DNA of 17,976 bases, from the NCBI RefSeq assembly GCF_003334385.1, contig NZ_QOWN01000062.1; one strand, written 5' to 3'. Shown one piece after another: positions 1,732 to 17,860 of this stretch (position 1 is its first letter; every line of letters begins with the position of its first letter). This DNA comes from Escherichia coli. Its GTDB lineage: Bacteria; Pseudomonadota; Gammaproteobacteria; Enterobacterales; Enterobacteriaceae. Made by a program: the position numbers and the translations under genes. The notes beneath the pieces were generated by a model. That model searched no databases, had not been told where the DNA came from, and worked only from the letters and a program-made list of their open reading frames with translations.

Positions 1732-2307
1732 TTAAGGATTCATTAAGCAATGTCGCAACCACCAATAAATCCGCTTAAGAACATGAAAATTGATTACTGG
1801 TATAAAGCGCTTACAGTTGTTGGCGCTGCGTTGTTTGTCTTTAATGGAACGTCTTTTTTTGACAGATATCCCGTTGTTCCATTGGGTTTTTTGTCCTCCG
1901 GCATCTTTTTTATTGGTTTGGGGGAGTGGATTAATCACCCTCTCATAGTGAGATTTATTGGTCCTGGAGTTTGGACTCGTGGATATAATCGTTCTTCGTG
2001 CGCACTCGGTATCATCTTCGACATACTTGGTTGTTTCCTGATTGTTACAGGAGTCGTCAAGTTCTTCTGATGTAAAACCGCAAATGGGGCACGTAACGGG
2101 AATTTTGAAAAGCGTTTCTCCGGGTTCCAGAACAAAATTTTCTGCGGTCTGATTTTGCTTCTCATATTTGTGCTCCGCGTCATTGTGAGAGCACATTCTT
2201 ATTCTGAGTGCCTGTTTAAACTCACTGAAGCTGAGAGCTTCTTCGCCTTCGGCAAGGCCTTCGAAGTATTCTTCGTAAGCCTTTTCCATGATTGTGTCGA
2301 AATCCAT
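1732..2307 (-). CDS. ydfB: YdfB-like ORF; the first 42 codons match the short YdfB I remember, but here the frame stays open for 191 codons
   Basis: ATG at 2307-2305 with AGGTGAG Shine-Dalgarno, 1 nt after the ydfA stop. Begins MDFDTIMEKAYEEYFEGLAEGEEALSFSEFKQALRIRMCSHN, then continues DAEHKYEKQ...CPICGF. The C-terminal part is low-complexity and may be a shadow of the antisense ORF at 1750..2070. Confidence 0.4.
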   Translation of the reverse strand: MDFDTIMEKAYEEYFEGLAEGEEALSFSEFKQALRIRMCSHNDAEHKYEKQNQTAENFVLEPGETLFKIPVTCPICGFTSEELDDSCNNQETTKYVEDDTECARRTIISTSPNSRTNKSHYERVINPLPQTNKKDAGGQKTQWNNGISVKKRRSIKDKQRSANNCKRFIPVINFHVLKRIYWWLRHCLMNP

Positions 2308-2308
2308 A

Positions 2309-2464
2309 TCACTCACCTGAGTTTCTTTCCAGCCAGCGACGGGCACCATTTTCGGTTTTAAACGTTTTGCTTTTGGTATACGTCATCGCGGTGAACGTAC
2401 CGTCCTGGTTGGGGAACACGCCACATACCAGAGATTCGCTGTTGCCAAGATCGATAGTATCCAT
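2309..2464 (-). CDS. ydfA: YdfA (51 aa)
   Basis: Internal Met of track ORF 2309..2518 gives MDTIDLGNSESLVCGVFPNQDGTFTAMTYTKSKTFKTENGARRWLERNSGE. GAGGT Shine-Dalgarno upstream of the ATG at 2464-2462. Confidence 0.85.
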   Translation of the reverse strand: MDTIDLGNSESLVCGVFPNQDGTFTAMTYTKSKTFKTENGARRWLERNSGE

Positions 2465-2534
2465 GCTGACCTCATTTCCCCTTAACGCCGGGGTAGCGGA
2501 ACTGTTTGCTGAGAACACCGTGCGGTGTCTTGAT

Positions 2535-2570
2535 GGAGGTAATTTAGTTTTCTCATTATTTTCGTCAAGG
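2535..2570 (-). promoter_or_regulatory. Candidate sigma-70 promoter for the ydfA-dicB operon
   Basis: On the minus strand: TTGACG (rc of 2563-2568), 16-nt spacer, TAAATT (rc of 2541-2546), lying between the dicA-like stop and the ydfA start. Judged by eye only. Confidence 0.35.
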
Positions 2571-2655
2571 TTTTTTGATGAGAAAGCTCAAGTATTGGCG
2601 CAAGATAAAGCCAATACATTGAAATGTAAGGCTTTAAAATTTTGTGAAGGGATGA

Positions 2656-3063
2656 TTATTGATGCTTGTTGCGTTTGCGAGCCTCTAATAGCTCGGTGAA
2701 CAGGCGATTAAAATTCTCAACGCGGGCGCGGAGTTCGCTGAGTTGTGCTTGTTGCTCTGATTTAGGAAGTGCGCGATACAAACGCAGCATCTCTAACTCA
2801 TCTTCCGATAAGTCTAAGGCACTATCGAGTGAAACAGGGGGAGCTGGTGTTTTGTCCTCGTCGCCAAACAGTATCCAAGTTGGTGAACATTGCAATACCT
2901 CGGCGAGGCGATGCAAATTTTGCCCGCGCGGGGCTGTATGGTCACTTTCCCATAATGAAATTGATGAGCCAGATACGCCAGCAGCTTTGCTTAAACCGTT
3001 TTGACTTAAGCCTACCTGCTTACGTCTTTCTCTAATGCGTTGACCTAAAGTTTTCTCGTTCAT
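2656..3063 (-). CDS. dicA: DicA-like HTH (XRE-family) repressor, 135 aa
   Basis: Internal Met of track ORF 2656..3114 gives MNEKTLGQRIRERRKQVGLSQNGLSKAAGVSGSSISLWE...VLQCSPTWILFGDEDK...; the VLQCSPTWILFGDEDK block and C-terminus match DicA as I recall it. Divergent from the Cro-like gene. Confidence 0.85.
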   Translation of the reverse strand: MNEKTLGQRIRERRKQVGLSQNGLSKAAGVSGSSISLWESDHTAPRGQNLHRLAEVLQCSPTWILFGDEDKTPAPPVSLDSALDLSEDELEMLRLYRALPKSEQQAQLSELRARVENFNRLFTELLEARKRNKHQ

Positions 3064-3140
3064 ATTTAGATATCTTAATAACCCTTGACTTGAGATTCCT
3101 TGAGTGATTAGCATTGAGAAAACTCAATATTGGAGGTGCG
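3064..3140. promoter_or_regulatory. Divergent promoter/operator region between the dicA-like and dicC-like genes
   Basis: 77-bp intergenic region with three TTGAG motifs and a perfect palindrome ATTGAGAAAACTCAAT at 3113-3128 overlapping the dicC-like ribosome-binding region. Typical repressor/Cro switch geometry. Confidence 0.45.
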
Positions 3141-3368
3141 ATGTTTAAATCAGACGTAATTAATTTTTACGGTACGAAAGCCAAAGTAGCGAAAGCTGCT
3201 GGCGTTGACCCATCTGCTGTTTCTCAATGGCAAGAGCTGGTTCCTGAAGGTCGCGCGATGCGTCTACAGGAGGCATCTGGCGGCGAGCTTCTGTATGATC
3301 CCAAGGTTTATGACGAATATCGTAAGACGAAGCGGGCGGGGCGGTTGAACAATGAAAATCACTCCTGA
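3141..3368 (+). CDS. dicC: DicC-like (Cro-type) regulator, 75 aa
   Basis: ATG at 3141 with GGAGGTG Shine-Dalgarno. MFKSDVINFYGTKAKVAKAAGVDPSAVSQWQ...EGRAMRLQEASGGELLYDPKVYDEYRKTKRAGRLNNENHS resembles DicC. Divergent from the repressor. Confidence 0.8.
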   Translation: MFKSDVINFYGTKAKVAKAAGVDPSAVSQWQELVPEGRAMRLQEASGGELLYDPKVYDEYRKTKRAGRLNNENHS

Positions 3369-3873
3369 ACAGGCTCGTGAGGCTCTGGATGCCTGGATAT
3401 GTCGACCAGGAATGACACAGGAGCAGGCGACGATATTAATCACTGAAGCATTCTGGGCTTTGAAAGAGCGCCCGAACATCGATGTTCAGCGTGTCACATA
3501 TGAAGGTGGCGCGATTGATCAGCGAGCGCTTGGCGTTAATCGAGTGAAGATATTTGAACGCTGGAAGGCTATCGACACCAGGGATAAGCGTGAAAAGTTC
3601 ACGGCGCTAGTGCCTGCAATTATGGAGGCTATCCGGATTAATGATTTCAGGTTGTATCGTGAAATTACTGACGGAAAAAGCATCACGTGCATGATCGCCG
3701 GGTTAAACAAAGAATATGGCGATGTGGTGGAGTCCGGACTGCTTTTTGCTGATCCTGCCGTAGTGGATCGTGAAACTGACGAACTTATAGAAAAAGCAAT
3801 TGCTTTCAAACTTGCGTATCGACAGCAATACCAACAAAAAGCTGGATGGAATTATGAGCCTTCTTTTTGCTGA
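3352..3873 (+). CDS. Hypothetical 173-aa protein at the CII position (possibly YdaT-like); function not recognised
   Basis: Track ORF; ATG overlaps the dicC-like 3' end by 17 nt, suggesting translational coupling. Family assignment is a guess from gene position. Confidence 0.55.
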   Translation: MKITPEQAREALDAWICRPGMTQEQATILITEAFWALKERPNIDVQRVTYEGGAIDQRALGVNRVKIFERWKAIDTRDKREKFTALVPAIMEAIRINDFRLYREITDGKSITCMIAGLNKEYGDVVESGLLFADPAVVDRETDELIEKAIAFKLAYRQQYQQKAGWNYEPSFC

Positions 3874-4819
3874 ACGCCCACTGGTTATAAACACGCAGCT
3901 GGCAATGAAAATTGGCTTAAACGAAGCCATTGTTTTGCAACAACTGCACTACTGGTTGAGAGATACCAACTCCGGCATGGAATGTGATGGTGTTCGCTGG
4001 ATTTATAACACAACGGAACAATGGCTGGAACAGTTCCCATTCTGGTCAGAGTCAACGTTAAAGCGCGCGTTTGCAAGTCTGAAAACGCTGGGGCTTTTGC
4101 GTTGTGAAAAGCTCAATAAATCAAAGCGCGATATGACCAATTTCTACACGATCAACTATGGGTGCGAGCTTTTAGATGGTGGCAAATTGAGCGAATCCAT
4201 CGGTTCAAAATGCGCCGCTCCATCAGGTCAAAATGACACGATGGAAGAGGTCAAAATGAAACGCTCCATTGGTTCAAAACGACCCAATGTCATCGGGTCA
4301 AAATGGCCTGATGATCTTACAGAGAATACAACAGAGATTACTACAGAGAATAAAAACACTTTTCGTCCGGAAGCTTCGCAACCGGACCCGCAGACGACTG
4401 AACAGGATTTTTTAACCCGGAACTCCGACGCGGTTGTGTTTAGTGCGAAAAAACGCCAGTGGGGTAGCAGGGAGGATTTGGCGTGTGCGCAGTGGATCTG
4501 GGGGCGGATCGTGGGTCTCTACGAACAGGCAGCCAGTGATGATGGCGAGATCATGCGACCAAAAGAGCCTAACTGGACTGCCTGGGCCAATGACGTGCGC
4601 ACAATGCGGATGCTGGATGGCAGAAGCCACAGACAAATTTGCGAAATGTTTGGTCGGGTTCAGCGAGATCCATTCTGGGTAAAAAACATCATGAGCCCGT
4701 CAAAGCTCCGCGAAAAATGGGACGAACTGGTCATCCGCCTGGGACGTTCACCTGTACAGCGTTGTGTTAATCATATTTCTGAACCGGATACAGAAATTCC
4801 GCCTGGTTTCAGAGGATAA
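3854..4819 (+). CDS. Phage replication initiator / replisome-organizer protein (lambda O-like role), 321 aa from the ATG at 3854
   Basis: Track ORF 3800..4819; preferred start at 3854 (MSLLFAERPLVINTQLAMKIGLNEAIVLQQLHYWL, an HTH-like N-terminus). The gene contains five iteron repeats at 4196-4305, as ori-lambda lies inside O. Confidence 0.7.
   Translation: MSLLFAERPLVINTQLAMKIGLNEAIVLQQLHYWLRDTNSGMECDGVRWIYNTTEQWLEQFPFWSESTLKRAFASLKTLGLLRCEKLNKSKRDMTNFYTINYGCELLDGGKLSESIGSKCAAPSGQNDTMEEVKMKRSIGSKRPNVIGSKWPDDLTENTTEITTENKNTFRPEASQPDPQTTEQDFLTRNSDAVVFSAKKRQWGSREDLACAQWIWGRIVGLYEQAASDDGEIMRPKEPNWTAWANDVRTMRMLDGRSHRQICEMFGRVQRDPFWVKNIMSPSKLREKWDELVIRLGRSPVQRCVNHISEPDTEIPPGFRG
4196..4305 (+). repeat. 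Five direct iterons (core GGT(T)CAAAA(T/C)G) at 22-25 bp spacing inside the replication gene; candidate replication origin
   Basis: Core starts at 4202, 4226, 4249, 4271 and 4296, with flanks TCCATCGGTTCAAAATG, TCCATCAGGTCAAAATG, GAGGTCAAAATG, TCCATTGGTTCAAAACG and GTCATCGGGTCAAAATG. Followed at 4320-4356 by three ACAGAGA(A/T)TA repeats in an A-rich stretch. Confidence 0.6.
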
Positions 4820-4859
4820 GTGTTGATTTCAGGTCATGAGGTAATTTTAAGGGGGACTT

Positions 4860-5282
4860 GTGGCAAAAGTTTTTACACAAGAAGAGCGGGAAAAAATTAA
4901 ATGGCAGGTGGTGGAACTCGTGCGCCAGAGCGGCCGTGAGACGTTACGGCAACTGGAAGCTAAAACAGGTGCGACTAGATATCTGATGAGCGTTCTTGCC
5001 AGAGAGCTGGTAGCCAGTGGCGATGTATACAACTCCGGCTACGGGTTATTCCCCTCTGAACAGGCGCGTAAGGACTGGCAAAACGCCCGCAAAAAACTCT
5101 CGAGGGCAAAGGTGAAGAAACCTGCTTTGGTTGATCCGGACCTTATCTGGTCATCACCTGACGGAGAAATACGTCGCTACGACAGTCGCCTAAACATAAT
5201 CTGTCGCGAGTGCCGGAAGAGCGAAGTTATGCAGCGCATACTGGCTTTCTATCAGGGTAATTTTCAGGACGTGGCGCAGTGA
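4860..5282 (+). CDS. Hypothetical 140-aa protein (GTG start), downstream of the replication initiator
   Basis: Track ORF preceded by AAGGGGGA Shine-Dalgarno. Its stop overlaps the GTG start of the following methyltransferase ORF (GTGA). No recognisable motif. Confidence 0.5.
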   Translation: MAKVFTQEEREKIKWQVVELVRQSGRETLRQLEAKTGATRYLMSVLARELVASGDVYNSGYGLFPSEQARKDWQNARKKLSRAKVKKPALVDPDLIWSSPDGEIRRYDSRLNIICRECRKSEVMQRILAFYQGNFQDVAQ

Positions 5283-5725
5283 GTGCACCGGCAACCATTC
5301 TTGATATGTGCTGTGGCAGCCGCATGTTCTGGTTCGATAAGTCTGACGAACGGGCGATATTCAGCGATATCAGAAAAGAAGGATACACATTACGCAATGG
5401 GAGACGCTTGATTATCAGCCCTGACATTATCGCAGATTTTCGTGCATTATCATTTGCAGACGCATCTTTTTCGATGGTTGTATTAGACCCTCCGCATCTT
5501 GAGAGTGTTGGTGATAACGCCTGGATGGGAAAGAAATATGGACGGCTGAATAAAGATGCCTGGCGTGATGATTCGCGACAGAGATTTAAAGAAGCCTTTC
5601 GGGTGTTGAGGCCGCACGGCGTTCTGATTTTTTAATGGAATGAAACGCAAATACCGGTAAGCCAGATTCTGGCACTGACAGACAGAAAACCTGTTATCTG
5701 TCAACGAACAGGGAAAAAACGATAA
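5279..5725 (+). pseudogene. DNA amino-methyltransferase (motif I DMCCGS, motif IV DPPH) interrupted by an in-frame TAA at 5633-5635
   Basis: Track ORF 5279..5635 carries VVLDPPHLE, the D-P-P-[YFWH] catalytic motif of N6A/N4C methyltransferases, and a SAM-binding-like ILDMCCGS. The same frame continues after the TAA for 29 codons (WNETQIPVSQILALTDRKPVICQRTGKKR) to a TAA at 5723-5725. Confidence 0.5.
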
Positions 5726-5897
5726 AACCCACTGGATTATTTTTATGAAAGAGGCATCCAGTGAGTAGATTCGTAAGGCTACAGATACGTATATCTGAAT
5801 AATTAAATTCAGTTCTGTAAATAAAATTTAATCCTTAACCGGATGGATTTCTGCACCCTCAGAACATCAGGAGGCAGCCCGAAAGGGCGGTAGTGAA

Positions 5898-6080
5898 ATG
5901 CGAAAGTTCAAAATTATTATTGAAACGGGAATAGCTGGTGGAGATTTTGAGGATGTATTCGAAGTGGACGATGACGCAACACCTGAGGAAATTCATGACG
6001 GAGCATAAGAAATTTTCTTTAACTACTGCAATTACTCATACCACGAAATAAAAGACGATGAGGAAGAACAAAGTGGCTGA
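5898..6080 (+). pseudogene. Small acidic ORF (36 codons) with an in-frame TAA at 6006-6008 and a 23-codon in-frame continuation
   Basis: MRKFKIIIETGIAGGDFEDVFEVDDDATPEEIHDGA, stop, then EIFFNYCNYSYHEIKDDEEEQSG in the same frame. Manual translation. Confidence 0.3.
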
Positions 6081-6249
6081 TTTTTGTTCAGCTAAATATA
6101 ACATCAGTTTTGAAGAGCGGGATGAACTATTAATGGACTATGGTGAGTTACGCGGTGGAAGTGCTGCTGATGTCGAATCCTAGCGTGATGACTATGAAGC
6201 GGGAAAAACTCCGGTCGAAGCATATTGTGATGAGTGGGGCGATGAATGA
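6058..6249 (+). pseudogene. Small ORF (41 codons) with an in-frame TAG at 6181-6183 and a 21-codon acidic in-frame continuation
   Basis: MRKNKVADFCSAKYNISFEERDELLMDYGELRGGSAADVES, stop, then RDDYEAGKTPVEAYCDEWGDE. The terminal TGA overlaps the ATG of the next ORF (ATGA). Confidence 0.35.
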
Positions 6250-6533
6250 GCGAGATTAATTATCAGGAAGGGCATGAAACGGCGGGGCAAGCAAAACCAG
6301 TGGCATGGCGATATCGCTACGTGAAAAAAGGCGTTACGGACTTTCAGGGGAAGTAGTGGTCTGGTGACTGGAAATATGTACCGAAAAAAGAGGATTGTAA
6401 CGACAGGCCGAACTATCAAATTCAGGCCTTATTCACTGCCTCACCAGTCCCAGTTACATCAGAAGAACTGGTTAAAGCTGTGCACTTTTATGAACAACTA
6501 AAACGCGAAAATCCACCAACATCCGGCAACTAG
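6246..6533 (+). pseudogene. Small ORF (36 codons) with an in-frame TAG at 6354-6356 and a 58-codon in-frame continuation
   Basis: MSEINYQEGHETAGQAKPVAWRYRYVKKGVTDFQGK, stop, then WSGDWKYVPKKEDCNDRPNYQIQALFTASPVPVTSEELVKAVHFYEQLKRENPPTSGN in the same frame. Confidence 0.4.
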
Positions 6534-6787
6534 ATTAATGGATTAACTATGTCGGTTAAACGACCAGCCAACTGAAAAAGCGGAAACCTGATTACAGGTT
6601 GCCAGATAAGGCAATGAGCTACCTGGCGCGGAACGGACTGATAAGTATGGGGAATGTTTTACGATGAACCTTTAGACTAAAGAGTTTGTAACGCTATGTA
6701 AGTGATTTTTTCTGGTTTAGATATTTATATGTCCGGCCAAATTGAGGTGTGTTTAAATGTAATTGCACATTGATTGTAGGAGGAATA

Positions 6788-6967
6788 ATGAAAAACGCAT
6801 TGCAGTTTTTGTTTGTTGCGTTCTGGTTGTTCGCATCATGTATGCCCATCATCTTCACAGCAAGGTATATGGAAAAAGTTGATGTTTTGATATTAATATT
6901 TGGATATATAAATGCCCTTTTTTTAGGGGTGTTCATGGCGGTCATGTGCATTGAATACTGGCGGTAA
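6788..6967 (+). CDS. Small hydrophobic protein, 59 aa, two predicted transmembrane segments
   Basis: ATG at 6788 with AGGAGG at 6778-6783. MKNALQFLFVAFWLFASCMPIIFTARYMEKVDVLILIFGYINALFLGVFMAVMCIEYWR. No antisense gene explains it. Confidence 0.45.
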   Translation: MKNALQFLFVAFWLFASCMPIIFTARYMEKVDVLILIFGYINALFLGVFMAVMCIEYWR

Positions 6968-7301
6968 ATACAGCGAACTCCATTGGTTTAGTTGGATATT
7001 TACTGTGCTGGACAAAAACGGTTTGCGGGGAAATCTTAGTTAAGTAGAATGACTGCGGGTGCTTGAGGCTATCTGCCTCGGGCATGGACACCAACGGCAG
7101 ATAGAGAAAAGCCCCAGTTAACATTACGCGTCCTGCAAGACGCTTAACATTAATCTGAGGCCAATTTCATGCTAGACACATGTAGGTTAGCCTCTTACGT
7201 GCCGAAAGGCACGGAGAAGCAGGCTATTGTTAACACCAAGCTGTAATGTCCCCTTTGAACCATTCTAAAATGTCCCCAGACAATTCTCTGGGGGATTTTT
7301 C

Positions 7302-8615
7302 ATGATCAAAGAGACTGTTACGATGAGTCATAAGGAACTCCACCGACTTCAGATTATTCAGGAACAAGCTGCGGCACGCATTGGCATTTCTATTCGGCAG
7401 GTTAAACGTCTGGTGCAACGGTATAGAAATGAAGGGCCTTCTGGTCTGGTTTCCCACCGACGTGGAAAGCGTCCTAATAATTCCTTTTCTACTGAATTCA
7501 GAGCAACAGTAATTTCACTCCTCAAAGGCCGTTACGCTGATTTTGGACCTACGTTTGCGTGCGAAAAATTGCGCGAGATACACGGTTTATCTTTATCCGT
7601 TGAAACTCTCAGAAAGTGGATGATAGAAGAGGGGTTATGGCGTGAACGCCGTCGTAAAATTGCCCGTATATATCAACGCCGCATGCGACGACCATCTTAC
7701 GGTGAACTGATCCAGATTGATGGCTCACCTCATGACTGGTTTGAAAATCGAGGCCCCAGATGTACACTGATCGTTTTCATTGATGATGCCACCAGTGCGT
7801 TGATGGCGTTGCGTTTTGTGCCTGCTGAAACAACCCGGGCTTACATGGAAACCCTCCGGGGTTACCTTAATGATCATGGCGTACCGCTCGCTCTCTACTC
7901 TGATAGACACAGTATATTCAGGGTAAATAACCCAGAGCGGGAAGGTGAGCTGACCCAGTTCACTCGTGCGATAAAGACACTGGGCATCGAGCCAATCCAT
8001 GCCAACAGCCCGCAGGCAAAAGGGCGGGTAGAGCGCGCCAATCAGACACTACAGGACAGGCTGGTCAAAGAAATGCGGCTTCAGAATATCAGTGATATTG
8101 AAACAGCAAATGCATGGTTGCCGACCTTTATTGAAGCCTATAACAACCGGTTCGCTACGTCGCCTCGTACTACTGATAATGCTCATCTTGATGTGCACCA
8201 TTCTGAAGAGGAACTGGGTTATATCTTCAGCCTACAGGCGAAGCGCGTTCTGTCTAAAAATCTCACTTTCCAGTACAAAAGCAGTGCGTTTCAGGTACGC
8301 AGTGAGGGCCGGGGATATCGACTTAGGCATTCGGTTGTTACTGTATGCGAGAACTTTGACGGTGAAATTAACGTTCTGTATGACGGGAAAGCGCTGGGCT
8401 GGGAAAAGTATGTTGATGGCCCGGAGCCTATACCACTGGATGATGAAAAGAGTGTCCATGAACGAGTGGATAATGCCCGTATTGATTTACGCTCAAAATA
8501 CTATGTTAAACCTAAAGCTGACCATCCCTGGCTTACGCGCCGAACGCAAAGTCATCAGCAAGTTAAGCCCCCGAAGTTACCTAAAAAGAAGCCTGATCCC
8601 GATAAAAAAGATTGA
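7302..8615 (+). CDS. IS-element DDE transposase (integrase-core/rve type with N-terminal HTH), 437 aa; family uncertain (IS481-like or ISNCY-like)
   Basis: Track ORF with HTH-like N-terminus (IGISIRQVKRLVQRY) and candidate DDE residues in IQIDGSPHDW, IVFIDDATSA and GRVERANQTLQD. Ends of the element could not be defined. Confidence 0.8.
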   Translation: MIKETVTMSHKELHRLQIIQEQAAARIGISIRQVKRLVQRYRNEGPSGLVSHRRGKRPNNSFSTEFRATVISLLKGRYADFGPTFACEKLREIHGLSLSVETLRKWMIEEGLWRERRRKIARIYQRRMRRPSYGELIQIDGSPHDWFENRGPRCTLIVFIDDATSALMALRFVPAETTRAYMETLRGYLNDHGVPLALYSDRHSIFRVNNPEREGELTQFTRAIKTLGIEPIHANSPQAKGRVERANQTLQDRLVKEMRLQNISDIETANAWLPTFIEAYNNRFATSPRTTDNAHLDVHHSEEELGYIFSLQAKRVLSKNLTFQYKSSAFQVRSEGRGYRLRHSVVTVCENFDGEINVLYDGKALGWEKYVDGPEPIPLDDEKSVHERVDNARIDLRSKYYVKPKADHPWLTRRTQSHQQVKPPKLPKKKPDPDKKD

Positions 8616-9018
8616 AACCAAGATCGATTCGGTTGAGTGCATATCCATTCATAGGGTAGATTCTTAAGTCGCGTTTCTGGTGTTCATTTTCGGGTGGTTT
8701 GTTACTTGTTTTACCGGGGATATGCCAGAAACGCGCTGAGTCAGTCTGGGCGGTGCGCGTAATGAGGCGTTATGGTAAATAGCCTATGCTAATGTCCGCT
8801 AAGAGCAAGAAGCGGAAGTTGGCAGTTTTGTGGACTGTCCCCACAAAAGTGACTACAGAAATAGTTGCAATTCATAATTGATCATGGGTTGTCAGTTAAA
8901 CTCGTGGCGATTTAAATAGACTAATTGGGAGTGCGTCCATTACTTATATCTTGTAATGTTAACTATCAGAAATGATACAAAGATAATATGTCTTTAAAGA
9001 AAAGGCTGATGGCGAAAA

Positions 9019-9037
9019 GTGGCCCGATGAGGGCCAC
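9019..9037 (-). terminator. Candidate intrinsic terminator downstream of flxA
   Basis: Hairpin GTGGCCC-GATGA-GGGCCAC just 3' of the flxA stop; on the minus strand it is followed by a short T-rich tract (TTTTCGCC). Confidence 0.35.
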
Positions 9038-9051
9038 AATACGGCTGTCAC

Positions 9052-9384
9052 TTAGACGTAAATATCAATGGTGCCAGCGGTATTTGTATCGTCTTTTTTC
9101 TCTTCTTTTTTATCAGGCTGAACTGTCGCGTCTTCATTCTTTTTCTCTGCCTGCTGCCTTAACAACTGCTCCAGTTGAGCCCAGAGGCTTTCAATTTGCT
9201 TCTGTACCAATGCAGCCATTTCTTTTTTCTGCTGTGTCGTCATCCCCTCTTCCGATGAGATTTTCCCAAGCTTTTCAGTCAGCACCTGAATTTGTCTTGT
9301 GATTTTGGCTATTTCTGATGTTCCTTCCGGGGCGGAGTTGTTTGAAATAACGGTTGAGGTATTTCCCTGAATTGTGACAGACAT
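9052..9384 (-). CDS. flxA: FlxA (110 aa)
   Basis: Track ORF MSVTIQGNTSTVISNNSAPEGTSEIAKITRQIQVLTEKLG... matches FlxA as I recall it. AAGGAG Shine-Dalgarno and a sigma-28 promoter lie upstream. Confidence 0.85.
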   Translation of the reverse strand: MSVTIQGNTSTVISNNSAPEGTSEIAKITRQIQVLTEKLGKISSEEGMTTQQKKEMAALVQKQIESLWAQLEQLLRQQAEKKNEDATVQPDKKEEKKDDTNTAGTIDIYV

Positions 9385-9407
9385 AGATTTCTCCTTTTAA
9401 AAAAGCA

Positions 9408-9434
9408 CTATCGGCATGCACAAAAAAATCTTTA
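9408..9434 (-). promoter_or_regulatory. Sigma-28 (FliA) class promoter for flxA
   Basis: Minus strand reads TAAAGATT - 11 nt - GCCGATAG, against the consensus TAAAGTTT-N11-GCCGATAA, about 25 nt upstream of the flxA start. Confidence 0.6.
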
Positions 9435-9586
9435 ATCGTATTTCTTGTGTCATTAATTGTTTGATGTTCAGATTGTTTTCCTCGCGGGCTGGCGCGCCTC
9501 AGAAAGTAAAGCTTGTTGACAGGGGTAAACGTTCGGCAATAATTTTCTGCCGCATGCGGGTGTTGCATAAAACGTGTTACGTTCCT

Positions 9587-9892
9587 TTATCGACAGGTCA
9601 GGTCACCGCTCACCCGCCGACGAGAAAGCAACACTGACATGCTAAAGCAAAAAATAGATGAATAAGTTGAGTTGTGCATATGTAGCCTGACCGTCACAAA
9701 GTATATGGTGTCTGTACCAGTAAGATGATGGCCGGACTCTTTAAAAACGAGCTGACCTGCACAATACAGGATGGACTTAGCAATGGCTGCTCCTGGCACA
9801 AAGCGGACAGTGATCACCGTTCTTACGACTACTTTCTGACTTCCTTCGTGACTTGCCCTAAGCATGTTGTAGTGCGATACTTGTAATGACAT
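9587..9892 (-). CDS. ORF at the ydfV position (101 codons); coding status uncertain
   Basis: Track ORF MSLQVSHYNMLRASHEG... between flxA and relB; same length as ydfV in K-12 as I recall. No motif support. Confidence 0.2.
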   Translation of the reverse strand: MSLQVSHYNMLRASHEGSQKVVVRTVITVRFVPGAAIAKSILYCAGQLVFKESGHHLTGTDTIYFVTVRLHMHNSTYSSIFCFSMSVLLSRRRVSGDLTCR

Positions 9893-9905
9893 TTGTAATT
9901 ACAAG
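9881..9905 (+). promoter_or_regulatory. relO operator of the relBE promoter
   Basis: TTGTAATGACATTTGTAATTACAAG, with inverted TTGTAAT/ATTACAA repeats, directly upstream of the relB Shine-Dalgarno (GAGGTG) and ATG at 9917. Confidence 0.7.
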
Positions 9906-9916
9906 AGGTGTAAGAC

Positions 9917-10156
9917 ATGGGTAGCATTAACCTGCGTATTGACGATGAACTTAAAGCGCGTTCTTACGCCGCGCTTGAAAAAATGGGTGTAACTCCTTCT
10001 GAAGCGCTTCGTCTCATGCTCGAGTATATCGCTGACAATGAACGCTTGCCGTTCAAACAGACACTCCTGAGTGATGAAGATGCTGAACTTGTGGAGATAG
10101 TGAAAGAACGGCTTCGTAATCCTAAGCCAGTACGTGTGACGCTGGATGAACTCTGA
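9917..10156 (+). CDS. relB: RelB antitoxin (79 aa)
   Basis: MGSINLRIDDELKARSYAALEKMGVTPSEALRLMLEYIADNERLPFKQTLLSDEDAELVEIVKERLRNPKPVRVTLDEL; near-identical to RelB as I recall it. Confidence 0.92.
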   Translation: MGSINLRIDDELKARSYAALEKMGVTPSEALRLMLEYIADNERLPFKQTLLSDEDAELVEIVKERLRNPKPVRVTLDEL

Positions 10157-10443
10157 TGGCGTATTTTCTGGATTTTGACGAGCGGGCACTAAAGGAATGG
10201 CGAAAGCTGGGCTCGACGGTACGTGAACAGTTGAAAAAGAAGCTGGTTGAAGTACTTGAGTCACCCCGGATTGAAGCAAACAAGCTCCGTGGTATGCCTG
10301 ATTGTTACAAGATTAAGCTCCGGTCTTCAGGCTATCGCCTTGTATACCAGGTTATAGACGAGAAAGTTGTCGTTTTCGTGATTTCTGTTGGGAAAAGAGA
10401 ACGCTCGGAAGTATATAGCGAGGCGGTCAAACGCATTCTCTGA
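10156..10443 (+). CDS. relE: RelE mRNA-interferase toxin (95 aa)
   Basis: MAYFLDFDERALKEWRKLGSTVREQLKKKLVEVLESPRIEANKLRGMPDCYKIKLRSSGYRLVYQVIDEKVVVFVISVGKRERSEVYSEAVKRIL. ATG overlaps the relB stop (ATGA). Confidence 0.92.
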   Translation: MAYFLDFDERALKEWRKLGSTVREQLKKKLVEVLESPRIEANKLRGMPDCYKIKLRSSGYRLVYQVIDEKVVVFVISVGKRERSEVYSEAVKRIL

Positions 10444-10514
10444 ACCAAAGCATGACATCTCTGTTTCGCACCGAAGGTGACACTTCTGCTTTGCGTTGAC
10501 AGGAGAAGCAGGCT

Positions 10515-10670
10515 ATGAAGCAGCAAAAGGCGATGTTAATCGCCCTGATCGTCATCTGTTTAACCGTCATAGTGACGGCACTGGTAACGAGGAAAGACCT
10601 CTGCGAGGTACGAATCCGAACCGGCCAGACGGAGGTCGCTGTCTTCACAGCTTACGAACCTGAGGAGTAA
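10515..10670 (+). CDS. hokD: HokD (RelF) Hok-family membrane toxin, 51 aa
   Basis: Manual translation MKQQKAMLIALIVICLTVIVTALVTRKDLCEVRIRTGQTEVAVFTAYEPEE; GGAGAAG Shine-Dalgarno. Under 60 aa, so absent from the ORF track. Confidence 0.9.
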   Translation: MKQQKAMLIALIVICLTVIVTALVTRKDLCEVRIRTGQTEVAVFTAYEPEE

Positions 10671-10735
10671 GAGACCCGGCGGGGGAGAAATCCCTCGCCA
10701 CCTCTGATGTGGCAGGCATCCTCAACGCACCCGCA

Positions 10736-10768
10736 CTTAACCCGCTTCGGCGGGTTTTTGTTTTTATT
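10736..10768 (+). terminator. Intrinsic terminator after relBE-hokD
   Basis: CCCGC-TTCG-GCGGG hairpin followed by TTTTTGTTTTTATTTT. Confidence 0.6.
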
Positions 10769-10886
10769 TTCAACGCGTTTGAAGTTCTGGACGGTGCCGG
10801 AATAGAATCAAAAATACTTAAGTAGCGCGCAGGGATAAGAGGGATGGTCCCTTAAAGGGGAGAGCTAATTATCCGGAAGGATTCTG

Positions 10887-11192
10887 ATGATGAACATCGA
10901 AGAACTGCGTAAAATTTTTTGTGAAGATGGCCTCTATGCTGTGTGCGTTGAAAATGGAAATCTTGTTAGTCATTACCGCATTATGTGTTTGCGAAAGAAT
11001 GGGGCTGCGTTAATTAATTTTGTGGATGCTCGGGTCACGGACGGATTTATCTTGCGCGAAGGTGAGTTTGTCACTTCATTACAGGCATTGAAAGAGATCG
11101 GAATAAAAGCTGGCTTTTCTGCTTTTCTGGTAACAAAGTGCTGGCAGGAAGAAGCATACGCGGAAGCGCAATTGAGGAAGGTGACGAGATAA
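10887..11192 (+). CDS. rem: Rem-like small protein
   Basis: Track ORF MMNIEELRKIFCEDGLYAVCVENGNLVSHYRIMCLRKNGAALINFVDARVTDGFILREGEF... resembles Rem of Qin. The C-terminus may differ in length from K-12. Confidence 0.65.
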   Translation: MMNIEELRKIFCEDGLYAVCVENGNLVSHYRIMCLRKNGAALINFVDARVTDGFILREGEFVTSLQALKEIGIKAGFSAFLVTKCWQEEAYAEAQLRKVTR

Positions 11193-11299
11193 ATGATTTT
11201 TGCTGAAGATGGCGACATGATGTTTGCATTTTTCAAAAAATATGGATAAAATTTTTTCAACGATGGGCTTTGTATACCCGACGTTAAGAAAAAGTAGAA

Positions 11300-11324
11300 A
11301 ACCCGCTGATGAGCGGGTTTTGTG
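11300..11324 (+). terminator. Intrinsic terminator downstream of rem
   Basis: CCCGC-TGATGA-GCGGG hairpin followed by TTTTGTG. Confidence 0.5.
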
Positions 11325-11613
11325 CTTTAAATGGGGCAATGGTAATGTTGAATCTCATCCCGGGACTCATGTCTGTTAACTTATTATTTAGCTGGTGACT
11401 TGGTTATTTGCCTGATGTTTAAAATGTTTTCTTCCAGTACAATGTCCCTAAACACAATGAGTCTGCTTATTATATTATTAGCAGAGCTATTACGGCCAAA
11501 GTACAGCATAAGCTTTTAAAGCCAATCAACCAGTCATCAAGACAGACGGGGTTATTCATAAAAACTCTCCATGTGTGATCCGATGGGGCCTGAAATTAAA
11601 GCTTTAATATAGC

Positions 11614-11826
11614 TCATGAAAGGTAAACATTGGCAGCTGAAGGGCCACGCAGACCATTTATCCGGCAAAATTCCACGCGTAATCCGGTGGTAATTTCTTC
11701 TGCATCGCGGAGATTGAGCGCTGAAACATGAAGCTGGACATCGATACGACCATCGGATGGGGTGATAAGACCCTTGCCGCTTTTGCCGTCAAAGGTTTTG
11801 ACAATTCCTGTCATTTTACGGGACAA
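11614..11826 (-). CDS. cspF: CspF/CspH-like cold-shock-domain protein (70 aa, apparent TTG start)
   Basis: Track [73 protein letters not shown]. Divergent from cspB as in Qin. Confidence 0.75.
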
Positions 11827-12126
11827 AAAAATTCCTTAATACTGATAACTTGGCGCACTATACACACGTTCCTGAAGAAAGCTATAGTTTTTTGATGGGG
11901 TTGAAGATGGCTGGATGTCTAAAATAAACATTGCTTCATATGTTCAACTATGCGTTAATGATTGCGTCGGTTTGAAGAACAGACGATATACGAAGTAGTT
12001 TACTAAAGCAGTTCTCATTTCAGGTGTTATTCACTTATTCCTTCTTTGAGTCTCTCCAATTAAGTACGAAGTCGTTTCTGTTATGCAAACCATTTATGCC
12101 GAAAGGCTCAAGTTAAGGAATGTAGA

Positions 12127-12342
12127 ATGTCAAATAAAATGACTGGTTTAGTAAAATGGTTTAACGCTGATAAAGGTTTCGGCTTTATTTCTCCTGTTGA
12201 TGGTAGTAAAGATGTGTTTGTGCATTTTTCTGCGATTCAGAATGATAATTATCGAACCTTATTTGAAGGTCAAAAGGTTACCTTCTCTATAGAGAGTGGT
12301 GCTAAAGGTCCTGCAGCAGCAAATGTCATCATTACTGATTAA
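12127..12342 (+). CDS. cspB: Cold-shock protein CspB (71 aa)
   Basis: [71 protein letters not shown]. Long 5' UTR containing a TGCCGAAAGGC box, as in the csp family. Confidence 0.9.
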
Positions 12343-12624
12343 AATTCATCGCTCGTCTGTATACGATAACGAAGAAGGCTGATGCCTGAGTAGAGATACG
12401 GACAGAGTAGTGAATATTGGATCTCTTTAATAAAAAGTAAGGAGGTCCAATACATGAAACAATGGCCAGCATATTTGGCAAAATCTTAATCAGGAAAAGT
12501 ATGCTAACCATTGTGGTGAAGTGCAGGTTTGCTGCATGAATAGTTTTACAGCAGAAGCTAACTGCTGGCATGGCAAAACAAAGTGCGTAAGTGGATGACT
12601 CCCACAAAAAGCACCACAATCTCA

Positions 12625-12648
12625 AACCCGCTCAGGCGGGTTTTTTAT
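12625..12648 (+). terminator. Intrinsic terminator downstream of cspB
   Basis: CCCGC-TCAG-GCGGG hairpin followed by TTTTTTATT. Confidence 0.55.
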
Positions 12649-12705
12649 TATCTGCTTTAAATATATTATTAAAATATAAAAAATACTTGTTACTAATAAA
12701 ATCAA

Positions 12706-12927
12706 TCAGGCTACAGCTTTAAGATTTGTCTGGAATACTTTGTTGCAATGAGGGCAGATCAAAAGGGCACCTTTTTGTACTCTTGAAAAACTGTGTTCTG
12801 ACTCTTGGGTGCAGTTTGGGCAGGAACATTTAACGAGATAATTACGGCGTGATTTTGAGTTTTTACGTTCTGACATAGGCTTTTCCTGTATAAATGGCCG
12901 TATACAGTACACTAAATATGAAAACAT
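12706..12927 (-). CDS. Small zinc-ribbon protein (CxxC ... CxxC), possibly YdfK/YnaE-like
   Basis: Track ORF containing KCSCPNCTQESEHSFSRVQKGALLICPHCNKVF. The true start may be the internal MSERKNSKS. Name is tentative. Confidence 0.5.
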   Translation of the reverse strand: MFSYLVYCIRPFIQEKPMSERKNSKSRRNYLVKCSCPNCTQESEHSFSRVQKGALLICPHCNKVFQTNLKAVA

Positions 12928-13095
12928 TTCTCGTATTATTATTTTATATATGACTTTCTTTCAAAATAATTACCCACATTTTTAATGTGTATGTTTTTTT
13001 AGCGCCGTTGAGAACAACGTGTGCTGTCAAAACTACCCCGTAGACTCCGATCTTTTCAAACATATTGCACCATCCGTGTACATCGGGGTGAGGAT

Positions 13096-13311
13096 ATGAA
13101 ATCAATGGATAAGTTAACAACAGGTGTTGCCTATGGCACATCGGCGGGTAATGCTGGTTTCTGGGCATTGCAGTTACTCGATAAAGTAACTCCGTCACAG
13201 TGGGCTGCAATCGGTGTGCTGGGTAGCCTGGTTTTTGGCCTGCTGACGTATCTGACAAATCTTTATTTCAAGATTAAAGAAGACAGGCGTAAGGCTGCGA
13301 GAGGAGAGTAA
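13096..13311 (+). CDS. essQ: Phage-21-type pinholin S (71 aa) with a dual-start motif (MKSM)
   Basis: ATG at 13096 and a second ATG at 13105; GGGGTGAGGA Shine-Dalgarno. [71 protein letters not shown] resembles S21. Confidence 0.85.
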
Positions 13312-13315
13312 TCCA

Positions 13316-13623
13316 ATGACTCAAGACTATGAACTGGTTGTGAAAGGAGTCCGTAATTTTGAGAATAAAGTTACGGTAACTGTAGCCTTACAGGACAAAG
13401 AACGCTTTGACGGTGAAATTTTTGACCTGGATGTCGCCATGGACCGTGTTGAAGGAGCTGCGCTGGAGTTTTATGAGGCAGCAGCCAGAAGGAGCGTCCG
13501 GCAAGTCTTCCTGGAAGTAGCAGAAAAATTGTCAGAAAAAGTTGAGTCTTATCTGCAGCATCAGTACTCCTTTAAGATTGAAAATCCTGCCAATAAGCAC
13601 GAGCGTCCTCATCATAAATATCT

Positions 13624-13627
<4 letters not shown>
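13316..13627 (+). CDS. ydfR: YdfR-like protein (103 aa) between holin and endolysin
   Basis: Track ORF MTQDYELVVKGVRNFENKVTVTVALQDKERFDGEIFDLDVAMD... Same position and length as ydfR in Qin as I recall. Confidence 0.6.
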
Positions 13628-14651
<1,024 letters not shown>

Positions 14652-15013
14652 GGTAATATTAAATCGGAACATTTACATCGCGGAATGTAAAATTTAAATA
14701 AAAAGGACTCTTCCATGAGCCAAAATTCCTGAAATCTTAAGGGTAAGATAAAAGGTCTTAATCAGAATGACACGTTTTATTAATAAATAAAGCTATTCTT
14801 TCATTGCTGTGTTTTTCTTTACAAAAGTAATCCTTGCTATGGGTGGTTAATCATGCGTTAATGGTGTTCTGGTTTGTTACAAATTTATCTGAAGCAGTCA
14901 TTGTTATAATTTTATTATTTGTACCTCTTGAGATTTCCTTGTTGGTTTTTCTCTCTGATATTTTTTTTCGGACCATTCTGCCCAAGGGCTAATTTCTTCA
15001 AAAGGTAATAATT

Positions 15014-15226
15014 ATGTCTAACAAAATGACTGGTTTAGTGAAATGGTTTAACCCTGAAAAAGGTTTTGGTTTCATCACGCCGAAAGATGGCAGCAAAGAT
15101 GTGTTTGTCCATTTCTCAGCAATTCAGAGCAACGATTTCAAAACATTAACTGAGAATCAGGAAGTTGAATTTGGTATTGAGAACGGACCTAAAGGTCCTG
15201 CCGCTGTTCATGTAGTGGCGCTTTGA
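15014..15226 (+). CDS. cspI: Cold-shock protein CspI (70 aa)
   Basis: [70 protein letters not shown]. Confidence 0.88.
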
Positions 15227-15314
15227 GGTAGACAATATTACAAACCATATTCACTTTAGATGCCCGTGTTGTCATGGTTCCCAGTATAGAACATCATCTT
15301 TTGATGTTTCTGAC

Positions 15315-15425
15315 ATGAATCCTTTCGGGGCAAAATGTATCTTTTGTAAATCAATGATGATTACATTTGATAATATTTCACAATACTTAAATGCCAGCCG
15401 TCTGTCGTTGGATTTAAAAAAGTGA
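15315..15425 (+). CDS. YnfN-like small zinc-ribbon ORF; only the ATG-initiated C-terminal part is annotated
   Basis: The frame is open from 15216 and encodes ...RCPCCHGSQYRTSSFDVSDMNPFGAKCIFCKSMMITFDNISQYLNASRLSLDLKK, but the CPCC half of the zinc ribbon has no in-frame ATG/GTG/TTG upstream. An out-of-frame ATG at 15259 suggests a frameshift. Confidence 0.3.
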   Translation: MNPFGAKCIFCKSMMITFDNISQYLNASRLSLDLKK

Positions 15426-15432
15426 AAATGAA

Positions 15433-15453
15433 GGCTCCTTCGGGAGCTTTTTT
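15433..15453 (+). terminator. Intrinsic terminator after the cspI / ynfN-like region
   Basis: GGCTCC-TTCG-GGAGC hairpin followed by TTTTTTG. Confidence 0.6.
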
Positions 15454-15497
15454 GCTTGGTGTCTATTCGATGGATACTCACATACTACGGTAACATC

Positions 15498-15728
15498 ATG
15501 AAAAAAATCATAGTTTTTTTTAACTCTGAACCAGCAGTGGTAGTGCCAGCGATGACTGGAGTTAACACCATCATGCGTGAATATCCAAATGGCGAAAAAA
15601 CACACCTTACTGTAATGGCCGCAGGGTTTCCATCTCTGACCGGAGATCATAAAGTCATTTATGTAGCCGCGGATCGACATGTTACTTCAGAAGAAATTCT
15701 GGAAGCAGCAATAAGGCTCTTGAGTTGA
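15498..15728 (+). CDS. Hypothetical 76-aa protein
   Basis: Internal ATG of track ORF 15456..15728: MKKIIVFFNSEPAVVVPAMTGVNTIMREYPNGEKTHLTVMAAGFPSLTGDHKVIYVAADRHVTSEEILEAAIRLLS. Starts just after a terminator. I recall no gene at this position in K-12 Qin. Confidence 0.45.
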   Translation: MKKIIVFFNSEPAVVVPAMTGVNTIMREYPNGEKTHLTVMAAGFPSLTGDHKVIYVAADRHVTSEEILEAAIRLLS

Positions 15729-15896
15729 TTTGATGCTATTGCATTGATAATTCAGGAAAATTCTCTTTGTCTGTTTGTGTAAAATTTAGACTATCGTATG
15801 TTGATTATTGCGATGTTTCATCTTATCTTTTACACGTTTGCACCATATAATCGACTTACTGTGTAACTGGAAAGTCATAACAGACTAAAAGAGGAA

Positions 15897-16073
15897 ATGA
15901 TGAATATTGAAAACTTAAAAACAAAAGCAGAAGCAGATATTTCTGAATATATAACAAAAAAAATTATTGAACTTAAGAAAAAGACCGGGAAAGAAGTTAC
16001 CAGTATTCAGTTTACCGCACGGGAAAAAATGACGGGTCTTGAAAGCTATGATGTCAAGATTAATTTAATCTGA
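15897..16073 (+). CDS. gnsB: GnsB-like protein (58 aa)
   Basis: Manual translation MMNIENLKTKAEADISEYITKKIIELKKKTGKEVTSIQFTAREKMTGLESYDVKINLI; AGAGGA Shine-Dalgarno. Resembles GnsA/GnsB. Under 60 aa, so absent from the ORF track. Confidence 0.8.
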   Translation: MMNIENLKTKAEADISEYITKKIIELKKKTGKEVTSIQFTAREKMTGLESYDVKINLI

Positions 16074-16224
16074 TGTATTCAATAATAAAATTTATCCATA
16101 AACCTCGTTTTTACGGGGTTTTGTTATATTTGAATGGTTCCGAATATCTAAATCACAATTGTTGATGGTTTTTATTAAACCAATGCAGTCCGGCCCAGGA
16201 GTGAGAGAAGCCGGACGTTATGGT

Positions 16225-16635
16225 TTAGCGTGGTAAGATCTGTGTAGTTTTCTGGATGCTTTCAGTAAATAGTAATGAATTATCAAAGGTATAGTAATAT
16301 CTTTTTTGTTCGTGGATATTTGTAACCCACCGAAAAACTCCTGCTTTAGCAAGGTTTCTTCTGTATTCCTGAAATGTGATCTCTCTGGATTTCAGCTTAT
16401 TAGAGGTCGTTTCTATAAGATGCCTATCCTTTGAAAATTTGACAGACACAATGTTTTTTAGGCCCTTTAATAACACTGTATTATCATTTTTTAATACAAT
16501 ATGAACATTCTCTGTGGCTAAATAGTAAATGTAATGTGAGACATTGTGACGTTTTAGCTCAGAATAAAACCATTGATAGTTTAAATCGTTTCGAACTTTA
16601 TCAAATATTTGTTTAAAAATGACTACCTGATCCAT
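16225..16635 (-). CDS. ydfO: YdfO-like protein (136 aa from the ATG at 16635)
   Basis: Track ORF 16225..16650; internal Met with GGAAGG Shine-Dalgarno gives [49 protein letters not shown]..., recognised as YdfO. Confidence 0.8.
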
Positions 16636-16692
16636 AGATAAACCTTCCATGTGATATGAGGGGGCGTAGTCTGCACGATTATCTAAATTGCT

Positions 16693-16926
16693 TCAATCTG
16701 GTCTGACCTGTTTTCTGAGCAATTCAGTAATGTCACTCTTTTCTTTGTTTGCTTCAGAAGAAACTCTTTTTTCTGAGCACAGTCTCCGGCGGCAGGCTTC
16801 AATGACCCAGGCTGAGAAATTCCCGGACCCTTTTTGCTCAAGAGCGATGTTAATTTGTTCAATCATTTGGTTAGGAAAGCGGATGTTGCGGGTTGTTGTT
16901 CTGCGGGTTTTGTTCTTCGTTGACAT
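16693..16926 (-). CDS. Ribbon-helix-helix (Arc/CopG-like) DNA-binding protein, 77 aa (possibly ynfO)
   Basis: Track ORF with a basic N-terminus and an RHH-like segment TRNIRFPNQMIEQINIALEQKGSGNFSAWVIEACRRRL. Lies next to cos and nohA. Confidence 0.6.
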   Translation of the reverse strand: MSTKNKTRRTTTRNIRFPNQMIEQINIALEQKGSGNFSAWVIEACRRRLCSEKRVSSEANKEKSDITELLRKQVRPD

Positions 16927-17089
16927 GAGGTTGCCCCGTATTCAGTGTCGCTGATTTGTATTGTCTGAAGTTGTTTTTACGTTAAGTTGATGCAGATCAA
17001 TTAATACGATACCTGCGTCATAATTGATTATTTGACGTGGTTTGATGGCGTAGATGCACGTTGTGACATATAGATGATAATTATTATCA

Positions 17090-17314
17090 TTTTGCGGGTC
17101 CTTTCCGGCGATCCGACAGGTTACGGGGCGGCGACCTCGCGGGTTTTCGCTATTTATGAAAATTTTCCGGTTTAAGGCGTTTCCGTTCTTCTTTGCCGTA
17201 ACTTAATGTTTTTATTTAAAACACCCTCTGAAAAGAAAGGAAACGACAGGTGCTGAAAACGAGCTTTTTGGCCTCTGTCGTTTCCTTTCTCTGTTTTTGT
17301 CCGTGGAATGAACA
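17090..17314 (+). promoter_or_regulatory. Lambda-type cos site: cosQ, cosN (12-nt cohesive end GGGCGGCGACCT at 17126-17137) and cosB up to the Nu1 start
   Basis: ...CGGGTCCTTTCCGGCGATCCGACAGGTTACG | GGGCGGCGACCT | CGCGGGTTTTCGCTATTTATGAAAATTTTCC... matches the right and left ends of the phage lambda genome as I remember them, then runs into the Nu1 start. Confidence 0.8.
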
Positions 17315-17860
17315 ATGGAAGTCAACAAAAAGCAGCTGGCTGACATTTTCGGCGCGACTATCCGTACCATTCAGAACTGGCAGGAGCAGGGAATGCCCGT
17401 TCTGCGGGGTGGTGGCAAGGGTAATGAAGTGCTTTATGACTCTGCCGCCGCCATAAAATGGTATGCCGAAAGGGATGCTGAAATTGAGAACGAAAAGCTG
17501 CGCCGGGAAGTTGAAGAACTGCGGCAGGCCAGCGAGACAGATCTCCAGCCAGGGACTATTGAGTACGAACGCCATCGACTTACGCGTGCGCAGGCCGACG
17601 CACAGGAGCTGAAAAATGCCAGAGACTCCGCTGAAGTGGTGGAAACCGCATTCTGTACTTTCGTGCTGTCGCGGATCGCAGGTGAAATTGCCAGTATTCT
17701 CGACGGGATCCCCCTGTCGGTGCAGCGGCGTTTTCCGGAACTGGAAAACCGACATGTTGATTTCCTGAAACGGGATATCATCAAAGCCATGAACAAAGCA
17801 GCCGCGCTGGATGAACTGATACCGGGGTTGCTGAGTGAATATATCGAACAGTCAGGTTAA
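17315..17860 (+). CDS. nohA: Terminase small subunit Nu1 (NohA), 181 aa
   Basis: MEVNKKQLADIFGATIRTIQNWQEQGMPVLRGGGKGNEVLYDSAAAIKWYAERDAEIENEKLRREVEEL... is near-identical to lambda Nu1. Confidence 0.92.
   Translation: MEVNKKQLADIFGATIRTIQNWQEQGMPVLRGGGKGNEVLYDSAAAIKWYAERDAEIENEKLRREVEELRQASETDLQPGTIEYERHRLTRAQADAQELKNARDSAEVVETAFCTFVLSRIAGEIASILDGIPLSVQRRFPELENRHVDFLKRDIIKAMNKAAALDELIPGLLSEYIEQSG

Follow-up and report, generated by a model that had tools for sequence, protein, structure and literature searches.

A single deletion of 2,108 bp has removed the antiterminator gene quuQ from the Qin-type prophage analyzed here; in what is very probably a case of ordinary prophage decay, this one event left the late promoter-terminator module (pR'-tR') and the late genes orphaned. 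The window, by which we mean the whole stretch of DNA analyzed (17,976 bp), is the complete contig QOWN01000062.1 of the Escherichia coli draft assembly GCA_003334385.1 and carries a lambdoid prophage, with both contig ends falling within phage genes (exonuclease and terminase); the 17,090 bp of the contig that were compared form an exact substring of the window. Our focus is the interval 11193-11613, which runs from the first base past the stop codon of the ORF at 10887..11192 to the last base before cspF. A first-pass annotation had read it as a non-coding spacer; it is instead native DNA found downstream of Q, comprising a pR'-like promoter, a pause element, a tR'-like terminator and the small gene ynfS. 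All of this belongs to systems already known, namely a Qin prophage and a lambda-type Q cassette, minus Q, and is no new kind of system. The result is mainly of value for annotation, as it explains the missing antiterminator of a Qin-like prophage, and it opens no new question, the one point of mild interest being whether prophages of the Qin type lose Q repeatedly under selection.

The best complete relative is found in strain SCU-104 (NZ_CP053284), which matches the entire window at 99.8% identity in two blocks that are 2,108 bp apart. Qin of K-12 MG1655 is 100% identical to the window over 8431-11126 and 99.5% identical over 11127-17843, synteny and near-identity extending from flxA/relBE through nohA. 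The common gene order is rem, ydfU, ydfT/quuQ, cspF, cspB, essQ/ydfR/rrrQ/rzpQ, cspI and nohA, and the RelBE, HokD, CspF, CspB, CspI and lysis proteins are identical in the two prophages. They differ in the 2,108 bp that the window lacks and in the left, immunity/replication arm (window ~1700-8430), which is only partly common to K-12 Qin and carries an ISNCY transposase in the window. Furthermore, K-12 Qin has lost its terminase, portal and capsid genes, whereas the lineage of the window has kept them, judging from SCU-104: beyond the window end, the SCU-104 prophage goes on to genes for terminase, portal, protease and capsid, and on the other side it has an integrase and an excisionase. The retention of these genes in SCU-104 suggests that the lineage of the window is less eroded than K-12 Qin.

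Alignment to K-12 Qin, which the first-pass annotation had proposed as a check, maps the breakpoints to the base. The blastn alignments to SCU-104 and K-12 both break at 11126|11127 (Table 1). Within the gap, K-12 and SCU-104 carry the last codons of rem, a 92-aa hypothetical ORF, ydfU (its product a DUF968 protein with the PHROG label 'HNH endonuclease') and ydfT, also called quuQ, which is annotated as antitermination protein Q. As the first-pass annotation had stated, quuQ and ydfU stand between rem and cspF in K-12 Qin; the K-12 annotation bears this out, and both genes are deleted here. Codons 1-229 of quuQ are gone, and codon 80 of rem is joined to codon 230 of quuQ. Compared with SCU-104 and K-12 the junction is blunt, with zero microhomology at either breakpoint, and we found no direct or inverted repeats flanking the breakpoints. 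These properties argue for an illegitimate, homology-free deletion; replication slippage or homologous recombination, considered as causes, are not indicated at breakpoints devoid of repeats and microhomology.

Table 1. Features of the window around the deletion junction and in the late region
Feature	Position	Strand	Description and basis
Rem(1-80)::QuuQ(230-250) fusion ORF	10887..11192	+	101 aa, in frame; WP_250112342.1
Deletion junction	11126..11127		Equals 17127|19236 of the SCU-104 locus (L002); missing segment L002 17128-19235
quuQ/ydfT 3' remnant	11127..11192	+	Codons 230-250 and stop; 100% identical to the ydfT end in K-12 and SCU-104
pR'-like late promoter (predicted)	11224..11252	+	TTGCAT, 17-nt spacer, TAAAAT; sequence evidence
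Inferred transcription start and sigma-dependent pause element (SDPE), AACGATGGG	11259..11267	+	Identical to lambda +1..+9
tR' hairpin	11298..11321		Terminator scan (minus strand) and RNA fold
ynfS, 29-aa small-protein gene	11470..11559	-	Pfam PF23697 YnfS; WP_120795389.1 in K-12 and SCU-104
cspF (moron)	11614..11826	-	Protein identical to K-12; annotated in K-12 and SCU-104
cspB with cspA-type 5'UTR thermoregulator	11966..12358 (CDS 12127-12342)	+	Rfam RF01766, 158.8 bits; protein identical to K-12
Intrinsic terminator after cspB (predicted)	12624..12643	+	Terminator scan: 8-bp stem, then TTTATTAT
Lysis cassette (essQ, ydfR, rrrQ, rzpQ/rzoQ)	13096..14651	+	Proteins identical to K-12 and SCU-104
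essQ	13096-13311	+	Lysis cassette
ydfR	13316-13627	+	Lysis cassette
rrrQ	13624-14157	+	Lysis cassette
rzpQ with embedded rzoQ	14154-14651	+	Lysis cassette
nohA (small terminase subunit)	17315..17860	+	PHROG 57, 266 bits; Pfam Phage_Nu1

The ORF ending just before the interval, formerly taken for rem, proves to be an in-frame fusion of rem to the last 21 codons and the stop codon of quuQ. Its two parts are matched without a mismatch by tblastn, residues 1-80 of Rem over 10887-11126 and residues 230-250 of QuuQ over 11127-11189, and comparison of the translations places its end at the quuQ stop codon. The fusion product carries the Pfam domain PF27490 Rem, while its last 21 amino acids match phrog_14186, a family of Q C-terminal fragments. 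The exact protein is present in NCBI under the name "hypothetical protein [Escherichia coli]". An ORF that can be read as plain rem is thereby identified as a Rem::QuuQ' fusion. Length variants in the Rem cluster (92, 96 and 82 aa) were considered as further Q fusions and rejected, since they reflect frameshifts or stop losses at the C terminus.

The protein that was lost is a member of the Q-lambda family. Q antiterminators have been assigned to PF03589 (Q-lambda), PF06530 (Q21) and PF06323 (Q82) (PMC9388147). QuuQ (250 aa) shows two matches to PF03589, 'Antiterm', together with a DnaJ-type CxxCxGxG region, and matches the Q-lambda structures 7UBM, 4MO1 and 7UBJ with E values from 4.6e-36 (7UBM) to 1.3e-20. 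With lambda Q itself it aligns from end to end at 33% identity (E 1e-40), apart from a 43-residue insertion in QuuQ that adds CxxC pairs. QuuQ of the relatives accordingly has the elements of a Q-lambda protein: an N-terminal torus-forming segment, a helix-turn-helix (HTH) body and a zinc-ribbon arm with CxxC pairs. The cysteine motifs and the HTH body all lie within the deleted part. We found no functional literature on quuQ.

Nothing of this architecture is left in the window, where the fusion ORF has no CxxC pair and, of QuuQ, just the 21 C-terminal residues; the earlier statement that no ORF has the zinc-finger organization of Q proteins is correct. A tblastn search of the window with QuuQ and lambda Q returns the 21-residue C-terminal remnant at 11127-11189 and no other match. 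Stop-to-stop segments of 70 aa or more from all six frames were also compared with PHROG profiles, a six-frame search suggested by the first-pass annotation, and the Q family phrog_127 is absent among the matches listed, which include a holin, an endolysin, a spanin, the small terminase, an O-like replication protein, a transposase and repressors. The positive controls reach 352 bits (QuuQ) and 279 bits (lambda Q) against phrog_127. For the first concatenated sequence, the PHROG matches are the best 25 of 66 families, and Q-like fragments below ~106 bits are covered there by tblastn, that is, for the Q-lambda type only. An NCBIfam search of ten otherwise unassigned ORFs yielded no antiterminator match. 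Likewise, no ORF of the Q21 (PF06530) or Q82 (PF06323) type appears among the PHROG matches listed or the NCBIfam matches of the ten ORFs; for these two types the result is based on PHROG (best 25 of 66 families for one half), NCBIfam and the annotation of SCU-104, in which ydfT is the sole antiterminator named by RefSeq in the 32 kb of the locus inspected. These searches confirm the original observation that the window contains no Q gene.

In every relative whose annotation was inspected, the segment equivalent to 11193 onward begins right after the Q stop codon. A quuQ-type gene is found in 2,419 of 5,426 complete E. coli genomes (2,904 places in 2,471 genomes, up to four per genome), with a median of one copy per genome having any. 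Both observations identify Q as the normal occupant of the DNA upstream of 11193.

A predicted pR'-like promoter starts 32 nt past the Q stop codon. This is the kind of late promoter that the first-pass annotation had proposed to look for upstream of 13096. A promoter scan reports the site at 11223-11252, shifted left by a base (TTTGCA, 18-nt spacer, TAAAAT). Taken over all its sites, the scan shows no enrichment relative to shuffled sequences (10 sites versus 6.2 +/- 2.9), and the promoter call therefore rests on homology and position. Aligned to lambda pR' without gaps and in the same register, from the start of the -35 hexamer to +26, the window shows 35 identities in 61 positions, concentrated almost entirely in the stretch from -35 to +9; counted from the spacer through +9, 28 of 38 positions are identical. 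Lambda and the window share an exact 11-mer, TCAACGATGGG, located at equal distance from the -10 hexamer and occurring once in the window, which puts the presumed start at A11259. The AACGAT at 11259-11264 corresponds to lambda +1..+6, the -10-like pause element. In the spacer, where a Q binding element (QBE) would be expected, 11 of 17 bases agree with lambda pR' by hand count and the sequence is nearly invariant in relatives; we consider it a candidate QuuQ site.

The RNA from 11259 to 11335 is predicted to form a 10-bp GC-cored stem followed by UUUUGUGCUUU (-30.4 kcal/mol, z = -6.0). The terminator scan flagged this hairpin in the minus orientation only; for the plus strand, termination is deduced from a tail rich in U and from conservation of the position. 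The hairpin would thus apparently act as a bidirectional intrinsic terminator, ending the transcripts of pR' in one direction (plus strand) and those of ynfS/cspF in the other (minus strand). The sequence of a terminator, about 290 bp of AT-rich DNA and then cspF, as first described, stands in part: a hairpin is present, and the 292 bp that follow it (37.5-42.5% GC) lead to cspF. The terminator is not that of rem, since it forms part of the pR'-tR' module, which stands behind Q in each of the relatives studied, and the DNA beyond it is not entirely non-coding, since it contains ynfS.

The module is conserved in relatives. In three diverged ones, the homologous segment starts right after the ydfT stop codon, and the -35 hexamer, spacer, -10 hexamer, SDPE and terminator stem are all conserved. 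The SDPE shows a single G-to-A change in one relative, and in an 83%-identical relative the stem of tR' is conserved and its loop variable. Strain PS2Canimalfeces3 (L008, 1248-2128) has a quuQ-type gene and shares only the 128 nt of pR'-tR' past it; further downstream lie an unrelated hypothetical ORF and a DNA methyltransferase gene. This distribution suggests that Q and pR'-tR' form one module exchanged among prophages.

A Q-dependent late cassette consists of the Q gene, PR', the QBE, the SDPE, a terminator and the late genes (PMC9388147). By sequence, the prophage has a sigma-70 pR' located directly after the place of the Q gene, an SDPE and an intrinsic terminator before the late genes; in the window itself, only codons 230-250 of quuQ, fused to rem, remain upstream of pR'. 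What had looked like a spacer is thus identified as an orphaned lambda-type pR'-SDPE-tR' module. The resemblance to the lambda cassette of Q, pR', qut (QBE and SDPE) and tR' includes the family of the lost protein, PF03589, the register of the -35 hexamer, 17-nt spacer, -10 hexamer and start, the identical nonamer at +1..+9, the terminator after the promoter and the lysis genes downstream. In contrast to lambda, the Q gene is gone from the window, tR' lies ~40-65 nt from the start rather than ~194 nt, and between tR' and the holin gene lie ~1.8 kb with morons (ynfS, cspF, cspB and ynfU) and a second terminator.

Downstream of the interval, ynfU lies on the minus strand between the cspB terminator and the lysis cassette. 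PHROG matches of this cassette are to a holin, an endolysin and an Rz-like spanin. The expected o-spanin, rzoQ, is an intact ORF embedded in the +1 frame of rzpQ (14329-14601, +) with a lipobox-like LTSC motif. The lysis cassette is followed by cspI, and a second cspA-type leader lies at 14868-15253 (+); the leaders of their own make the control regions of cspB and cspI independent of pR'. Next to nohA, the gene of the large terminase subunit starts at 17835, with its first 47 codons visible before the contig end. The late genes essQ, ydfR, rrrQ, rzpQ and nohA are intact ORFs on the plus strand. The earlier view of the lysis and packaging genes as apparently intact is thus well founded for lysis, the proteins being identical to those of K-12; for packaging, the part that can be seen is nohA and the 47 codons of the large subunit.

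In the absence of Q, transcription stops at the terminator downstream of PR' (PMC9388147). From the sequence we infer that pR' is active, that its transcripts end at tR' and that the late operon is silent. One illegitimate deletion, joining rem codon 80 to quuQ codon 230, has removed all functional parts of QuuQ, and 11193-11613 is the untouched distal half of a Q-dependent regulatory cassette. RNA polymerase starting at pR' would then produce a short RNA of ~65-70 nt ending at tR', with the terminator after cspB as a further obstacle on the way to the lysis genes. Deprived of their activator, the holin-endolysin-spanin cassette (1.8 kb downstream) and the genes for packaging should stay silent on induction unless a co-resident prophage supplies a QuuQ-type Q. 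The csp morons (cspF, cspB and cspI) and the relBE and hokD modules would be expressed from their own signals. The first-pass annotation had already described the late genes as cut off from their activator: the deletion of Q is now mapped, and the silencing itself would follow from the deletion together with the established mechanism of Q, PR' and terminator (PMC9388147). We very probably have here one more documented case of a prophage disabled at its late-gene switch, with toxin-antitoxin genes, cold-shock morons and lysis ORFs intact. The further idea of the first-pass annotation, that this cryptic prophage may have been retained for its morons, is an evolutionary conjecture.

The proviso about a co-resident prophage deserves attention, as the late operon would not be orphaned at all if a QuuQ-type Q from another lambdoid prophage, of the same qut specificity, were loaded in trans at pR' and the SDPE. 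We consider this unlikely, yet worth keeping in mind. The complete cis-acting site is kept and conserved, the Q and pR'-tR' module occurs in prophages with unrelated downstream genes, and quuQ-type genes are as common as noted above, with several copies in some genomes; the contig, moreover, ends in phage genes, as expected of a genome with several similar prophages. Against this, the median positive genome has a single quuQ-type copy, normally the Qin copy that is lost here. Our search for Q in the source strain covered this one contig.

Loss of Q by deletion, the reading we prefer, has a parallel in strain MLI104K2 (NZ_CP116925; L007, 3662-4594), where an independent in-frame deletion of ~881 bp has created a YdfU::QuuQ' fusion ending at the quuQ stop codon. 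As in the window, this Qin-like prophage has lost Q and kept pR'-tR', cspF/cspB and the lysis cassette; it differs in that the left breakpoint lies in ydfU (DUF968) and the right breakpoint ~28 nt upstream of that of the window, so that the fusion keeps the last ~94 nt of quuQ. In both cases the deletion reaches into the last 94 nt of quuQ, is in frame, and leaves the Q stop codon and all of pR'-tR' in place. We may hypothesize that Q loss in Qin-type prophages is recurrent and selected, disarming the lysis cassette, and in that event the short pR' RNA, the bidirectional terminator serving ynfS/cspF or the fusion proteins would be kept by selection. This we hold to be very doubtful, as two in-frame deletions may also reflect chance (~1 in 9 for both frames) and ascertainment, the MLI104K2 deletion having been found because it retains a Q fragment. 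Insertion sequences are also observed in this region: strain EC23 has an IS1 inside quuQ, five genomes carry an IS1A between quuQ and cspF, and four further strains have IS3, IS1A, IS5 or ISEc52, alongside ydfU and ydfT, in the span that matches window 9800-13400.

The deletion seen in the window is itself found in other assemblies. An identical junction is present in contig LYBI01000214.1 of GCA_002190145.1 (one mismatch in 1,358 bp) and in the Logan assembly ERR1948963 (100% identical), and the three contig sets with the junction, from NCBI and Logan, are listed as seen in 2, 2 and 6 samples. The junction is absent from all 5,426 complete E. coli genomes, in which the matches to 11100-11700 invariably begin at query base 28 (window 11127). 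An assembly artefact, that is, a collapsed or chimeric contig from a genome that really has ydfU-quuQ, might be suspected from this absence and from the source being a short-read draft assembly. Such an origin is highly improbable, and we reject an artificial or assembly origin of the deletion: three contig sets, each assembled separately, share the junction and the 101-aa fusion protein, and the junction lies in unique sequence, repeat-free at both breakpoints, where assemblers do not collapse. By its recurrence in separate assemblies and its absence from the complete genomes, the deletion is a rare natural allele.

That the prophage lineage never had Q at this position, its module architecture being different, finds some encouragement in the left arm that differs from K-12 Qin and is next to impossible, since 66 nt of the quuQ 3' end (21 codons and the stop), 100% identical, are left at the junction, SCU-104 with the same left arm and 99.8% identity has ydfU-ydfT, and Q directly precedes the pR' module in all inspected relatives; the quuQ remnant and the Q genes of these relatives contradict the suggestion, raised in the first-pass annotation as a possible refutation, that related prophages naturally lack Q.

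Several other elements were observed in the left arm and next to it. The small RNA DicF is found on the minus strand at 1420-1471 (76.7 bits). Between DicF and ydfA, the leftward early operon includes a 205-aa ORF (1732-2349, -) that matches phrog_35040, a family of unknown function, at 490 bits; it has no NCBIfam match and contains a single CPICG motif. From 5636 to 7300, only pseudogene fragments are present according to the SCU-104 annotation. Within this span, an Rfam match to the sok/CssrC antitoxin RNA (7057-7228, +; 104 bits) lies just 5' of the ISNCY transposase gene; no hok-like ORF was found near it, and it may be a remnant of a hok/sok locus. The ISNCY-family transposase ORF (7302-8615, +; 437 aa), inserted in a nin-like region, is intact in the window, whereas the gene is annotated as truncated in SCU-104.
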